Notes under the pieces: model-generated
What the model saw: only the letters and a program-made list of their open reading frames with translations
Database searches by the model: none
What the model was told of the DNA's origin: nothing
Source of the DNA: an uncultured Aliiroseovarius sp.
GTDB lineage: Bacteria; Pseudomonadota; Alphaproteobacteria; Rhodobacterales; Rhodobacteraceae
NCBI RefSeq assembly: GCF_947497285.1
Contig: NZ_CANMFT010000004.1
Span: 305,595-369,594, forward strand
Reading direction: 5' to 3'
Length of the DNA stretch: 64,000 nucleotides
In this document: positions 2,850-6,737 of the stretch, piece by piece
Position numbering within the stretch: the first letter of the stretch is position 1
Layout of the letters: every line of letters starts with the position of its first letter
Position numbers and translations under genes: made by a program

Positions 2850-3227
2850 TCACAACGCCCACAAGATCCCCCCGACCCCAACCGTTGCCACAGTCATCAA
2901 AGCGGCAAGACGGGTGAAAGACTGTGTCGGTAACGCTTCTGCATCGTTTTCAGATAGCCGCGACAGAGTTTTGCAAGCCTGCCGCCGTGCCGCCCAATAG
3001 ATCACGATCGCTGCCAGCAAGAACAAAGTCGCGACCAGCTTGGCCGCCCAGGTTGGATCAAACGCCCCAAACACGGCCTTTAACCCGATCGCAACACCCA
3101 CCGCGCCAAGGCCGGTTCCCATCCACGCTGAAAACGTGCGCTCGTTGGCCATGATCGTTCGATCCTCGGCCCACCGCGTTCGGATTTCAGCTTTTTCCTC
3201 ATCATCTTTTGCATCGTGACTGGCCAT
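2850..3227 (-). CDS. YidH/DUF202 family small membrane protein
   Basis: DRTIMANERTFSAW motif followed by three hydrophobic segments. Confidence 0.85.
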   Translation of the reverse strand: MASHDAKDDEEKAEIRTRWAEDRTIMANERTFSAWMGTGLGAVGVAIGLKAVFGAFDPTWAAKLVATLFLLAAIVIYWAARRQACKTLSRLSENDAEALPTQSFTRLAALMTVATVGVGGILWAL

Positions 3228-3301
3228 GTTCCGACCCTATCCTGTCAGTTACCTCAGTGCGACCTGATTTGCGGACGCGCGCCAAATGATATCCCCTTGG
3301 A

Positions 3302-4330
3302 CTAACGTCCTTTGCGCTTTCCTGCGCCCTTGGTAACGCTCTTCACCATTTTCGAGAACTTTCGCTGTCGCGCGCGGCTTTCGGCCACCGTCTCGGTGTT
3401 CTTTGCATCACCGGCGCGCAATTTGCGCCAGCGTGCCAAACGGTCCAGATCAAGCTCTCCCGCGTCGATGGCCGCGCGTACGGCACACCCTGGCTCGGTT
3501 TCATGCGCACAGTCGGAAAACCGACATTGGGTTTCCAGCTCGGCCAGATCGTCAAAAACGCTGTCGATCCCCTCGCGGGTGTCCAAAAGACGTAACGCAC
3601 GCATGCCGGGCATATCAATGATCCAACCGCCCTGCAGCATGGGACGCATACTGCGCGAGGTTGTGATATGGCGGCCCTTCGCGTCGTCTTCGCGGACGCC
3701 GCCGGTGTCGGCGTCGCCCCCAGTCAAGCCATTGGTTAGGGTTGTTTTGCCCACGCCGGACGACCCGATAAAGGCCGCCGTTTGCGGGGCTTTGCACCAC
3801 GCCGCCACCGCTGCCGCACCGGATGGGTCGCGGGCGTTGACGGTCAGGATCGTCAGCATCGGGTCAAGGGTCTGTGCCTCGGCCTCGTATCGAAGGGGAT
3901 CATCGCACAGGTCCGCTTTTGTCAGGACCAGAACAGGATAACATCCAGCCTCATGTGCCAGTGCCAAAAACCGTTCGATCCGGGCAATGTTGAAATCATC
4001 ATTGCACGAGGTCACGATAAACAGCGTATCGACATTCGCCGCGATCAGCTGCGTATGTGCATCGGTCCCGGCGGCACGTCGTTGAAGCAGTGATTTTCGC
4101 TCCAAACATCGTTGTATGCGAAGCTCTGGGTCGGCCAAAACCCAATCGCCAACCGCCAATTCGCCGGCCACGATCTTGGGAGAGGTCAGGGTGACCTCGC
4201 CCGCCTCGCCCAGCGCATTCATGCGGCTGCGGTGAATGTCGGTGATCCGGTAAGGGGTCAAGTCGGCAGCGTCGTCGCGCTGCGCTTCGAAGAAAGGGGA
4301 CCAACCAAGGTCCGTAAGTGTGTGTGTCAT
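3302..4330 (-). CDS. rsgA: RsgA/EngC-family ribosome small subunit-dependent GTPase ('LGW' N-terminus type)
   Basis: Circularly permuted G motifs (TKAD, GSSGVGKTT, DMPG), GRHITT and zinc finger CRFSDCAHETEPGC. Start placed at ATG 4330 (MTHTLTDLGW). Confidence 0.93.
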   Translation of the reverse strand: MTHTLTDLGWSPFFEAQRDDAADLTPYRITDIHRSRMNALGEAGEVTLTSPKIVAGELAVGDWVLADPELRIQRCLERKSLLQRRAAGTDAHTQLIAANVDTLFIVTSCNDDFNIARIERFLALAHEAGCYPVLVLTKADLCDDPLRYEAEAQTLDPMLTILTVNARDPSGAAAVAAWCKAPQTAAFIGSSGVGKTTLTNGLTGGDADTGGVREDDAKGRHITTSRSMRPMLQGGWIIDMPGMRALRLLDTREGIDSVFDDLAELETQCRFSDCAHETEPGCAVRAAIDAGELDLDRLARWRKLRAGDAKNTETVAESRARQRKFSKMVKSVTKGAGKRKGR

Positions 4331-4331
4331 T

Positions 4332-4438
4332 GGTCTGCCTGTTTCAGCATGGCATTGCACCCCGCGCGCAAACGCGGCTTGGGGTGTGCGTGCTCAGGCA
4401 GAAATGGGTCAAACCCGTTTAGCAATTTCCTGCCCGAA
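4332..4438 (-). promoter_or_regulatory. Candidate translational attenuator with mutually exclusive hairpins controlling the rsgA SD
   Basis: Segment UCUGCCUGAG can pair with the SD-containing CAGGCAGA just upstream of the rsgA ATG. Alternatively it pairs with UUCGGGCAG(G)AAAU in the leader ORF. Confidence 0.65.
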
Positions 4439-4457
4439 GGGTGATGAGAACAGTCAT
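4419..4457 (-). CDS. Putative 12-aa leader peptide MTVLITLRAGNC upstream of rsgA
   Basis: SD GGAGGG (4463-4468), 5-nt spacer, ATG at 4457, TAA at 4419-4421. Its 3' half is complementary to the anti-SD arm of the rsgA leader. Confidence 0.7.
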   Translation of the reverse strand: MTVLITLRAGNC

Positions 4458-4508
4458 GAAGTCCCTCCGTTTGTTGGCGGCCCGTGGTGGTTTCGGGCTT
4501 TTGGGCGG

Positions 4509-4638
4509 CTGTCCCTCTCGGCAAAACTCCGTTTCGCCTGTCGGGGTTTCAAATTCTGCGAATTTGAAACTGTTCTGTCCCTCTCGACAAAACTCCGTTT
4601 TGCCTGTCGGGGTTTCAAATTCTGCGAATTTGAAACTG
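4509..4638. repeat. Tandem direct repeat, 2 x 64 bp (period 66 bp), each copy with two hairpins
   Basis: 4509-4572 and 4575-4638 are identical at 62/64 positions. Each contains the perfect inverted repeat GTTTCAAATTC-tgc-GAATTTGAAAC. Confidence 0.95.
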
Positions 4639-4641
4639 GGT

Positions 4642-4734
4642 GAGAGGCTGAACACGACCCAAGCGGGGCTCGTTGTGGCTGCTTCCTTCCGGACCTGACC
4701 AGATTGGCGAGGTGCCTGCCCGCGCCAACCTCTC
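4642..4734 (-). ncRNA. ffs: Signal recognition particle (4.5S) RNA
   Basis: Reverse strand contains the conserved domain IV GGTCAGGTCCGGAAGGAAGCAGCC. The termini GAGAGG/CCTCTC pair. Lies upstream of dnaX as is usual for ffs. Ends are approximate. Confidence 0.96.
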
Positions 4735-4772
4735 GCCTCTCATATATGAGGCACTCACAAGCGATGCAAGCC

Positions 4773-6737
4773 TCAGAGTTCCATCTCGTAATGTGCAAAA
4801 CCTTTTGCGTCGCGCGCCGTCACGCAATCGATCGACAGCCAGGGGTATTTCTGGACGGCCGTCGCGGCGCGCGGCGAGGACTTGAACATGATGCTGGCCC
4901 CCGGCACATTCGCAAATCTCCAGATCGGTGCAGGGGACACCTCGATCACCTCGTTTCGTTCCACAAAAGCCTTCAGAACGTCGCGTATGGCAATCGGTGG
5001 CGTTGGCATGATCCGGTCGGCCGGCGCGACCGGAAAGCCACCACCGCCGCGCGCCCTGAAATCACTGGTCGCCAAAAGGAACTCGTCATCATCGTGCACG
5101 GCCTGAGCGTTATGACAAAGATCAATGATGCGACCAGCTGCCAGCCCAGACGCGGCCCCGGCGGGCGTGAACCGCGCGGGCTGTGACAGATCAACCTGAT
5201 AGGTCAACCCGAACACCGCCTCGAGCAGATAGCCCGGTGTCGCATCTTCTTTCAGCGCGACTCGACGGTCGCCCGGAAGCACTTGGTTGTAGATGCTGAC
5301 AGAGCGCTCCAGCCAATCTTTCAGATAGGCGCCAGTCGCGCGCACAAGGATCAACTCGTTCGGAAAGATATACAGATCTGATACCGACCGCAGCGTGATG
5401 TCGCCTGCTGGAACGTCGGAGTAATAATTCGCCCCCCCCAACCCGCCCGACTTGAACGGCGCGCTTGAGGCAAGAACGGGCAGCACCTCACCCGCCATAT
5501 CTTGCTGAATCTGATGCGCGTAATCCGCCATCGCCACCTGCACAAGGCGCGTGGCATTGTCGGCCCCCACCAAGGCAAGATAGGTATCGAGATCTTCCAG
5601 ACTGTGACCCACCCGCGTTCGCATGTGGCTGAGTGTCTTTTCATGTAAGCCATCCAGAAGGGTCGGCAAGTCTGGGGCAGATGCGGGTGTCGGTGGTGTG
5701 TGCGGTTTTCGCAGCGTTGACGGCGTCTTGACCACGCTGTTCGCCGGCGTTCGATCCGCCCCTGTCACGGCACGCAGATCGACCTTGGCCGAGCTTACCT
5801 GCCAGCGCCCGTCCTGATGGGTCAGGTCAAGATCAACGATTCCAAGATGGGACCCCCAGAACCCCGGCATCACCGTGGGTATGCCGTTCAGTCGCCCCTC
5901 GGTCGAATTCGGGCCATGGGCCGCGTGATCACCAGCCGGAAACACCTGATGGGTGTGACCGCCCACAATCGCATCAATCCCATCCAGTCGTGACAACGGC
6001 ACAAGGGCGTTTTCCATGTTGGGAACATGCGTGCTGCCGCCCAGCCCTGAATGGGCAAGCACGATGACGATGTCGGCACCGTTCTGACGCATCAGCGGAA
6101 CATAGGCGCGTGCTGTTTCGACGATATCGCGTGTCTCGGGCAGGTTATCTTGCCCACTGCCTTGTCGCAGCGATCCCGGAGGCAGCAGACCAAGCACTCC
6201 GATCCCAAGATCGCCCACCGCCCCGCCTGTGTCTGTGACCTTGCGGTGCAGGATCGTGAACGGGGGCATAAGTGTTGTGTCTTGGGTCGGACACGCGGCG
6301 CGCCTGAGAACTGAATTTGCAGACAGAACTGGAAAACTTGCCTGTCCGATCGCCCCCAGCAGCACATCGACCCCACGGTCGAAATCATGGTTGCCCAGAT
6401 TTGCCGCGTCATAGTCCAGATGGTTCATCGCAGCAATCATTGGATGGGTGGCAACATCGATGGCAGGCGCATCGTCCAACCCGGCCCGCTCCAGCACAAG
6501 ATCGCCCATCGCCGTCCCATGCAGAAAATCGCCATTATCCAGCAGGATCGAGTTGGGCACTTGCTGTCGGGCTGCGTGGATCAGACACGCGGTATTCGCC
6601 AATCCCCACTGGTCCACGCGATTGTCAGACAGGTAGTCGTAGGGGAGAATATGCATGTGCAGGTCTGTCGTCGCCATTACGCGCAACGTTGTGTGAGGGG
6701 GCACGGGCCTTGCGTCACGATTTCGAATGGATTTCAA
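4773..6737 (-). CDS. cpdB: CpdB-like 2',3'-cyclic-nucleotide 2'-phosphodiesterase / 5'-nucleotidase family protein
   Basis: Metallophosphoesterase motifs TTDLH, DNGD, GNHDF, AHSG and GGHTH, plus a C-terminal nucleotidase domain (SAPFK). Start is uncertain (TTG 6737 chosen). No signal peptide visible. Confidence 0.85.
   Translation of the reverse strand: MKSIRNRDARPVPPHTTLRVMATTDLHMHILPYDYLSDNRVDQWGLANTACLIHAARQQVPNSILLDNGDFLHGTAMGDLVLERAGLDDAPAIDVATHPMIAAMNHLDYDAANLGNHDFDRGVDVLLGAIGQASFPVLSANSVLRRAACPTQDTTLMPPFTILHRKVTDTGGAVGDLGIGVLGLLPPGSLRQGSGQDNLPETRDIVETARAYVPLMRQNGADIVIVLAHSGLGGSTHVPNMENALVPLSRLDGIDAIVGGHTHQVFPAGDHAAHGPNSTEGRLNGIPTVMPGFWGSHLGIVDLDLTHQDGRWQVSSAKVDLRAVTGADRTPANSVVKTPSTLRKPHTPPTPASAPDLPTLLDGLHEKTLSHMRTRVGHSLEDLDTYLALVGADNATRLVQVAMADYAHQIQQDMAGEVLPVLASSAPFKSGGLGGANYYSDVPAGDITLRSVSDLYIFPNELILVRATGAYLKDWLERSVSIYNQVLPGDRRVALKEDATPGYLLEAVFGLTYQVDLSQPARFTPAGAASGLAAGRIIDLCHNAQAVHDDDEFLLATSDFRARGGGGFPVAPADRIMPTPPIAIRDVLKAFVERNEVIEVSPAPIWRFANVPGASIMFKSSPRAATAVQKYPWLSIDCVTARDAKGFAHYEMEL

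Follow-up and report, generated by a model that had tools for sequence, protein, structure and literature searches.

How does a bacterium match its supply of RsgA, a GTPase of 30S ribosome assembly, to the state of its ribosomes? To our knowledge, the tuning of ribosome-assembly factors to need is largely unknown in bacteria, and the question is raised here by about 140 nucleotides (nt) lying ahead of rsgA on the minus strand of the window, as we call the whole 64,000-nt stretch analysed, from contig NZ_CANMFT010000004.1 of an uncultured Aliiroseovarius sp. An original prediction, made from the DNA letters alone, had placed a leader-peptide attenuator at this site. On comparative sequence evidence, the segment is a cis-regulatory leader that is conserved and specific to rsgA. 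It very probably contains an RNA switch over the Shine-Dalgarno (SD) sequence of rsgA, one that would depend on a short upstream open reading frame (uORF). As the explanation of the whole, a three-arm, uORF-dependent translational attenuator, in which the helices P1 and P3 exchange a common strand, is the one to which we give a slight preference. The parts of the leader and the regulated gene are as follows, in the direction of transcription and with the basis of each assignment in brackets (MFE, minimum free energy).

4463 to 4468, minus strand: SD sequence GGAGGG of the uORF, 5' strand of helix P0 (sequence)
4419 to 4457, minus strand: uORF of 12 codons and a stop, MTVLITLRAGNC, with its ATG at 4457 and its TAA at 4419 (sequence)
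4436 to 4441, minus strand: CCCUUC, an anti-SD-like segment in uORF codons 6-7, 3' strand of P0 (MFE fold)
4425 to 4438, minus strand: arm 1, UUCGGGCAGGAAAU, in uORF codons 7-11, 5' strand of helix P1 ('ON') (pairing, covariation)
4406 to 4416, minus strand: apical hairpin GGGU-UUG-ACCC, capping P1 after the uORF stop (fold)
4391 to 4405, minus strand: arm 2, AUUUCUGCCUGAGCA, the shared strand, pairing with arm 1 (P1) or with arm 3 and UGCU (P3)
4358 to 4386, minus strand: hairpin P2 inside P3, CACCCC...GGGGUG with GCG/CGC at its tip (fold)
4346 to 4349, minus strand: UGCU, the extension of P3, whose partner is AGCA at 4394-4391 (fold)
4334 to 4341, minus strand: arm 3, CAGGCAGA, the 3' strand of helix P3 ('OFF'), with the one AGG of rsgA that resembles an SD (pairing, covariation)
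3302 to 4330, minus strand: rsgA, the regulated gene, 342 amino acids with an LGW-type N-terminus (PF03193, 148.9 bits)

The uORF, the 5-nt spacer between its GGAGGG and its ATG, and the 88 nt from its end to the rsgA ATG are all present as originally described. Arm 1 closely repeats arm 3, and each is complementary to arm 2; because arm 2 is shared, P1 and P3 are mutually exclusive, which had also been foreseen. In P3, UCUGCCUG (4402-4395) pairs with CAGGCAGA (4341-4334), followed by AGCA with UGCU, and the helix encloses P2 and covers the rsgA SD. The pairings AGCA/UGCU and CACCCC/GGGGUG of the proposed OFF fold were recovered, with a correction of one nucleotide to its arm, which had been put at 4403-4396. 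This OFF arrangement is the computed MFE fold of the leader (-65.3 kcal/mol, z = -2.69 against 200 shuffles), and in it the SD sites of both the uORF and rsgA are paired. In the alternative ON arrangement, UUCGGGCAGGAAAU (4438-4425) pairs with AUUUCUGCCUGAG (4405-4393) over 13 base pairs with one bulged G, capped by the GGGU-UUG-ACCC hairpin; the computation gave this helix just as it had been proposed. Two elements were absent from the original prediction. One is the third helix, P0, in which the uORF SD pairs with CCCUUC in codons 6-7 with a probability of 0.99 in the window, and the other is ffs, the gene of the small signal recognition particle (SRP) RNA, which lies directly upstream.

Is the uORF kept in other genomes? 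We gathered rsgA loci from 30 relatives, 80 named genomes and 25 further genera, and counted as a uORF any ATG-initiated frame that has 9-17 codons, is preceded by a strong SD and lies 60-200 nt upstream of rsgA. By this definition a uORF is found in 67 of 104 related loci, across many Rhodobacteraceae genera and in Pseudovibrio, as against 2 of 104 in the reverse-complement control. The duplex of its SD with the anti-SD has an energy of -8 to -13 kcal/mol in every leader evaluated (68/68), and its length is 12 codons in 51 of the 83 distinct leaders, with M-[ITS]-V-[VA]-x-x-[LP]-R-A-[GAR]-x-x as the consensus peptide. In codons 3, 4, 7, 9 and 10 the most variable base is the one in the third position, which at the level of sequence is a coding signature. 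The frame is also held relative to the structure: the distance from the A of the uORF ATG to the core of arm 1 is 21 nt in 76 leaders, 24 nt in six and 18 nt in one, all insertions and deletions between the two are multiples of three, and arm 1 stands in an identical reading frame in 83 of 83. Residue 8, which falls within arm 1, is R, Q, P or G depending on the base pairing, which argues that constraint at the RNA level dominates in this arm. A short frame with a ribosome-binding site (RBS) of its own, conserved as a frame, would be in keeping with the known leader-peptide attenuators. A second open reading frame in another frame, MSSSPFGQEFAKRVYPLSA with its stop, which begins 4 nt after the uORF ATG, was considered as well and rejected, as it is open only in the window's subclade (L010-L018); the conserved sequence probably gives rise to it incidentally.

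The two competing helices were evaluated on 65 leaders, aligned with MAFFT independently of any structure, with 500 shuffles as the reference. For P1, 69% of the alignment cells are paired, compared with at most 45% in slid registers, and covariation is 0.220 where the shuffle mean is 0.158; for P3 the corresponding values are 64%, at most 40%, 0.223 and 0.134. Neither helix was equalled by any of the 500 shuffles. A single position of arm 2 (U or C, alignment column 105) covaries with both of its partners (columns 44/105/195), forming GC 26 times, GU 18 times and AU 15 times in P1, and UA 28 times, CG 22 times and UG 6 times in P3; at this three-way position, 52 of the 65 sequences allow both helices. 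An alignment-free evaluation of the duplex between arm 2 and the rsgA RBS gave a mean z of -1.47, with p<=0.05 in 33 of 83 leaders. When the uORF was masked in silico, as it would be by a ribosome, the leaders with a P3 probability above 0.5 rose from 14 to 36 of 65. Run on the genus alone, RNAalifold returned P0, P1 and the inner hairpin, and P2 has five pairs with compensatory changes within the genus. The arrangement is that of an attenuator, with two mutually exclusive helices that share arm 2 and one of which hides the SD of the regulated gene. The conservation expected by the original prediction was borne out: dozens of genera keep both helices, and with them the uORF, the SD in front of it and the frame in which it crosses arm 1.

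The specificity of the leader was followed with a covariance model, R1, covering the part from the SD to arm 2 (86 positions). R1 matches the window's own genome once (76 bits) and has one site each in 26 of the 151 family genera sampled, and the 25 sites outside the window all lie directly upstream of rsgA (25/25). Matches away from rsgA were absent from about 300 genomes, and no match was obtained in the 73 sampled genera that lack rsgA, nor in 150 other alphaproteobacterial families represented by one genome each, among which longer uORF leaders escape the model. Such longer leaders do accompany LGW-type rsgA elsewhere in the Alphaproteobacteria, for example MTAIVLHPAGGVRQAG and MAIVAIRQNGGTI. 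Their uORFs (L151, L152, L154, L158, L168, L169, L170, L156 and L159, from other alphaproteobacterial families) have 13-18 codons, the consensus M-T-A-I-V-x-x-P-A-G-G and a position 170-280 nt upstream of rsgA. Here too, a middle arm is complementary to two closely similar segments, an arm 1 inside the uORF and an arm 3 that lies 4-7 nt ahead of the start codon, as judged by an arm search that took the best of many windows without a null distribution. The arm sequences are very different (e.g. GCUGGU, GGAACG, GGACGAGAC), and the N-terminal I-V motif and x-A-G codons in arm 1 are present again. The Rhodobacteraceae form is compact, with 12 codons and about 140 nt fused to the 3' end of ffs, and sequence comparison suggests that it is one branch, the compact one, of a family that spans the class. 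In the gammaproteobacterial LGW-type loci (Woeseiaceae and Granulosicoccaceae) no comparable uORF was found, and a divergent gene abuts rsgA. This leader and the related ones of other lineages together suggest that LGW-type or accessory RsgA is generally a regulated and stress-responsive protein and not a housekeeping one.

Another question regards the direction in which such a switch would turn. The uORF stop lies invariably in the loop of P1, between arm 1 and arm 2, with 8-20 nt from the arm 1 core to the stop and a median of 22 nt from the stop to the arm 2 core. A ribosome usually reaches about 12-15 nt 3' of its P or A site. At a median of 22 nt past the stop, arm 2 would therefore lie outside a terminating ribosome and be free, and the fixed 21 nt between AUG and arm 1 would place arm 1 just beyond an initiating ribosome. 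In the model that we propose, a ribosome elongating on the uORF would melt P1 and halt short of arm 2, which could then pair with the nascent arm 3 to form P3, turning rsgA OFF. If no ribosome were loaded, P0 and P1 would form, and they would also form if a ribosome were held on the AUG or the first codons, owing to the 21-nt ruler; in this state arm 3 would be single-stranded and rsgA translated (ON). The ON state of the window species would be kinetic, so that the choice would be made co-transcriptionally. The more readily ribosomes start on the leader and clear it, the less RsgA might then be made, and for a factor of 30S maturation such negative feedback is plausible. The same polarity (uORF run-through as OFF) had been proposed originally. 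The geometry fits it, with the stop between arms 1 and 2, the median spacing and the ruler. Granting the switch, we regard this polarity as rather probable.

Several observations weigh against this model. The polarity rests on sizes of the ribosome footprint that come from general knowledge. When both folds were computed under constraints, the ON fold of the window species proved 12 kcal/mol weaker than the OFF fold (-43.6 vs -55.9), and with OFF more stable by this amount ON is possible only as a kinetic, co-transcriptional state. The helix that dominates at equilibrium varies by species, being P1 in 31, P3 in 14 and neither in 20 of the 65 leaders. The mean unpaired probability of the rsgA RBS (-15..+3) did not shift consistently between the runs with and without the uORF mask (0.50 vs 0.49), on a crude equilibrium measure of accessibility, too coarse for the purpose, that we replaced by pair-specific probabilities. 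A tree-aware covariation test, which had no power, returned one independent pair on well-supported branches, and the covariation is phylogenetically clustered. P0 shows no covariation, its strands being too invariant (78% of cells paired in the 65 leaders). Finally, two species of the same genus, L019 (1501-2560) and L020, have lost all sequence between arm 1 and arm 3, and arm 2 with it. Their remaining uORF (MRVVPAHQDAQ and MRVLPAHQDAQ, respectively, each with a stop) ends in an ATGA that overlaps the rsgA start, and this overlap would couple uORF and rsgA positively, which is awkward for a purely negative role of the uORF. By their sequence, the two loci may be a natural variant in which direct coupling, or an SD that is constitutively open, took the place of the switch; the deletion implies enough similarity between arm 1 and arm 3 for recombination, and a regulation that can be dispensed with.

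What might the leader measure? It may report initiation capacity or 30S maturity. In one possible but doubtful elaboration of the attenuator, the leader would gauge directly how mature the 30S subunits are: only those whose anti-SD tail is mature and free would displace P0 and translate the uORF, and rsgA would then be off. The internal CCUCC would in this case be a copy of the 16S rRNA 3' end that holds the perfect SD of the uORF, and where immature 30S subunits build up, P0 and P1 would persist and RsgA would be made. Were this true, the maturation of the rRNA 3' end and the factor that checks this maturation would form a closed feedback loop, wired into the SRP RNA transcript and kept in varied forms across the Alphaproteobacteria. 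A wider mimicry, of the Era-binding tail of the 16S rRNA 3' end (AUCACCUCC), was rejected, since CCUCC alone is conserved across genera. Translation factors under autogenous control are familiar, namely IF3, through the start-codon discrimination of infC, and RF2, through the frameshift of prfB. The logic proposed for RsgA is alike in that the very step which a factor of the translation apparatus improves also sets the expression of that factor, although the feedback is in this case one that we infer, and the means differ, since infC and prfB use a non-canonical start codon and a programmed frameshift within the gene where rsgA would use a uORF and competing helices.

A different direction is conceivable, and it is that of the ermC or cat type of inducible switch: a drug or metabolite would stall a ribosome late in the uORF, at the L-R-A-G codons or the stop, and free the rsgA SD. 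The stalled ribosome would hold arm 1 and, where the spacer is short, shield arm 2, so that accessory RsgA would be induced for ribosome protection or repair. The spacing from stop to arm 2 is indeed just 9-14 nt in about one quarter of species; at the median, however, it leaves arm 2 free. The peptide is partly conserved (L7 in 58, R8 in 53, A9 in 72 and G10 in 36 of 76 peptides), and Ala9 is retained though its third codon base varies, yet residue 8 follows the pairing with arm 2 and arm 3 and not side-chain chemistry. Like many inducible resistance factors, rsgA of this type is an accessory gene, present in 78 of the 151 sampled genera of the family. One locus (L093, a Parvibaculaceae metagenome-assembled genome, MAG) carries a uORF, MSHCVSKLRAAGTWT, 44 nt upstream of rsgA and overlapping the rsgA ATG, and encodes L-R-A by different codons, as CUA CGU GCU instead of CUC CGG GCC; this recoding, which a late stall would explain, hints that the peptide motif itself may matter. 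With the leaders of ermC and ermB, and also cat-86 and cmlA, the rsgA leader has in common a short leader ORF with a strong SD of its own, a choice of fold by ribosome position, alternative hairpins of which one buries the SD of the regulated gene, and the lack of a terminator. In place of their four segments, where a ribosome on segment 1 frees the SD, we found three arms, with arm 2 a median of 22 nt past the stop, and a ribosome on the pairing segment (arm 1) should favour P3 and thus close the downstream SD. The rsgA leader further differs from this class in adding P0 (the uORF SD with the internal CCUCC), in regulating a 30S assembly GTPase, in its unrelated peptide and in having no known inducer.

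A late stall also brings to mind the arrest peptides SecM (for secA) and ApdA/ApdP, which carry RAGP or RAPP motifs and in which the downstream gene has its SD concealed by an RNA helix. The R-A-G of the rsgA uORF product and the helix over the downstream SD are points of likeness. RAG occurs in 36 of 76 peptides, however, and the proline that should follow RAG or RAP is missing from 82 of 83, leaving a single RAGP arrest motif (1/83, L083); compared with SecM, moreover, a peptide of 12 residues is too short to span the exit tunnel, and its R varies with RNA pairing. All in all, we consider a late-stalling, inducible switch unlikely.

It is quite unlikely, in our view, that the attenuator should give way to an RNA thermometer or another structure-only element, in which P0, P1 and P3 would sense temperature or a protein (RsgA, a ribosomal protein or an RNase) and the uORF would merely aid the exchange of helices or be a by-product. 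The demand for ribosome assembly factors classically rises in the cold. In the MFE fold of the window each of the two SD sites is paired, and P0 is a perfect SD held by a CCUCC copy of the 16S rRNA 3' end, as such a sensor could use. Against it, the ORF, its strong SD, its ATG, frame and length are conserved far past the needs of the helices, and the indels upstream of arm 1 would not all have to be multiples of three.

The position of the leader raises the question whether the signal might be transcriptional instead. On the minus strand, the order is the 5'-nucleotidase gene, ffs, hairpin repeats, the leader, rsgA, a DUF202 gene and dnaX; the features upstream of the leader are these.

6797 to 4773, minus strand: 5'-nucleotidase gene, first in the minus-strand gene order
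4638 to 4735, minus strand: ffs, bacterial small SRP RNA (Rfam RF00169, 57.3 bits, gathering score 40, E 3.7e-11)
4509 to 4637, minus strand: two tandem hairpin repeats of about 64 nt each in the gap between ffs and the leader (sequence; context, outside the switch)

In most other genera the distance from the ffs 3' end to the uORF ATG is 23-55 nt, and in the window no promoter-like or terminator-like site was found between ffs and rsgA. The leader and rsgA are probably carried on read-through transcripts from the ffs promoter. Two metatranscriptome contigs (392 and 264 nt, from runs X19 and X20), which are 93-95% identical to a MAG locus (L041, 956-1344), span ffs, the leader and the 5' end of rsgA, with a depth over the leader of about 1% of that over ffs; these contigs are assemblies in which DNA may have been carried over, a further point that weighs against our reading of the locus. 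Of this region, public RNA runs contained the ffs part alone. Rho-dependent or intrinsic termination, or an RNase cut, could be thought to separate abundant SRP RNA from rare rsgA read-through, as the place of the leader immediately after ffs in most genera, the depth ratio and the C-rich segment between arms 2 and 3 would allow. The leader, however, has no terminator-like hairpin with a U-tract: within 4250-4900 the sole terminator-like site is inside the rsgA coding region, and P1, P2 and P3 are not followed by a U-tract. The leader is also retained in at least 12 loci without ffs upstream, which shows that it belongs to rsgA and not to ffs, and the target of arm 2 is the rsgA SD region, which points to control of initiation. 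We find a transcriptional or processing signal very unlikely.

The same lack of a terminator sets the leader apart from the ribosome-mediated transcription attenuators (trp/his, hflXr rli80, vmlR), since no choice between terminator and antiterminator was found in it. An attenuator of branched-chain amino-acid supply, suggested by I-V-V in codons 2-4, was rejected as well, as the run is short and variable and there is no terminator. The Listeria monocytogenes hflXr leader (rli80) works by transcription attenuation via a terminator, in response to lincomycin and erythromycin (PMC6310831). The likeness is that of a ribosome-associated GTPase under a uORF-bearing leader that senses ribosome trouble; the rsgA leader differs in its lack of a terminator, in control at the level of the SD and in its alphaproteobacterial host, as opposed to a Firmicute (PMC6310831). 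There remains chance, a fortuitous ORF with fortuitous complementarity in GC-rich intergenic DNA, where short ORFs and GC-rich stems are common and the single-sequence z is just -2.69, but the comparative data (a uORF in 67 of 104 loci vs 2 in the control, two covarying helices, and 25 of 25 covariance-model matches upstream of rsgA with none elsewhere in about 300 genomes) have already refuted it and leave it a negligible probability.

Has such a leader been described before? In Rfam 15, the segment 4328-4500 had no match at E<=1, the only matches being ffs and chance miRNA-like ones on the repeats, and no description of a leader peptide, a uORF, attenuation, linkage to ffs or autoregulation for rsgA was found in the searchable full-text literature. 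A cis-regulatory element for rsgA is thus described in neither, and within these sources the original suggestion of novelty holds. The three-arm leader of about 140 nt is compact and genetically tractable, with clear predictions for compensatory mutations. It would also be an example of an mRNA leader riding on SRP RNA read-through, which is itself probable.

The regulated gene itself is secure. The RsgA GTPase domain scores above the curated cut-off (PF03193, 148.9 bits vs 30), as does the NCBI equivalog model TIGR00157 (126.2 bits vs 100). The scores of PRK12288 and PRK12289 fall below their cut-offs, which marks the protein as a divergent, LGW-type RsgA. It is the only PF03193 gene in the window's genome and shares 79% identity with RsgA of A. 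halocynthiae. We take the ATG at 4330-4328 as its true start because the N-terminus MT..L.DLGW is common to 24 species of the genus. In many orthologues the start is a TTG in a conserved CAUUGAC context, or a GTG, with a weak SD 8-12 nt upstream (non-ATG starts are found in L033, L038, L046, L050, L057, L058, L073, L075, L087 and others), and weak initiation signals appear typical of rsgA. In a Tabrizicola MAG (L090) the W codon of the otherwise invariant LGW motif is TGA, and another rsgA match (G116) has one in-frame TGA; both may be pseudogenes or assembly errors.

The neighbourhood of the gene is conserved. With or without the DUF202 gene, rsgA lies between ffs and dnaX in the window (2850-4735, minus strand) and in L145 and L146, and in L146 and L147 it is also downstream of the same 5'-nucleotidase gene as in the window; rsgA looks like an insertion into a common ffs-dnaX pair. 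The gap between ffs and the leader holds, within the genus (window 4509-4637, minus strand; L021-L032), one to three copies of a repeat element, CCCGACAGGYGAAAC...GUUUCRCCGAGAGGGA. The copy number of these hairpin repeats differs within the genus, and they are absent from other genera.

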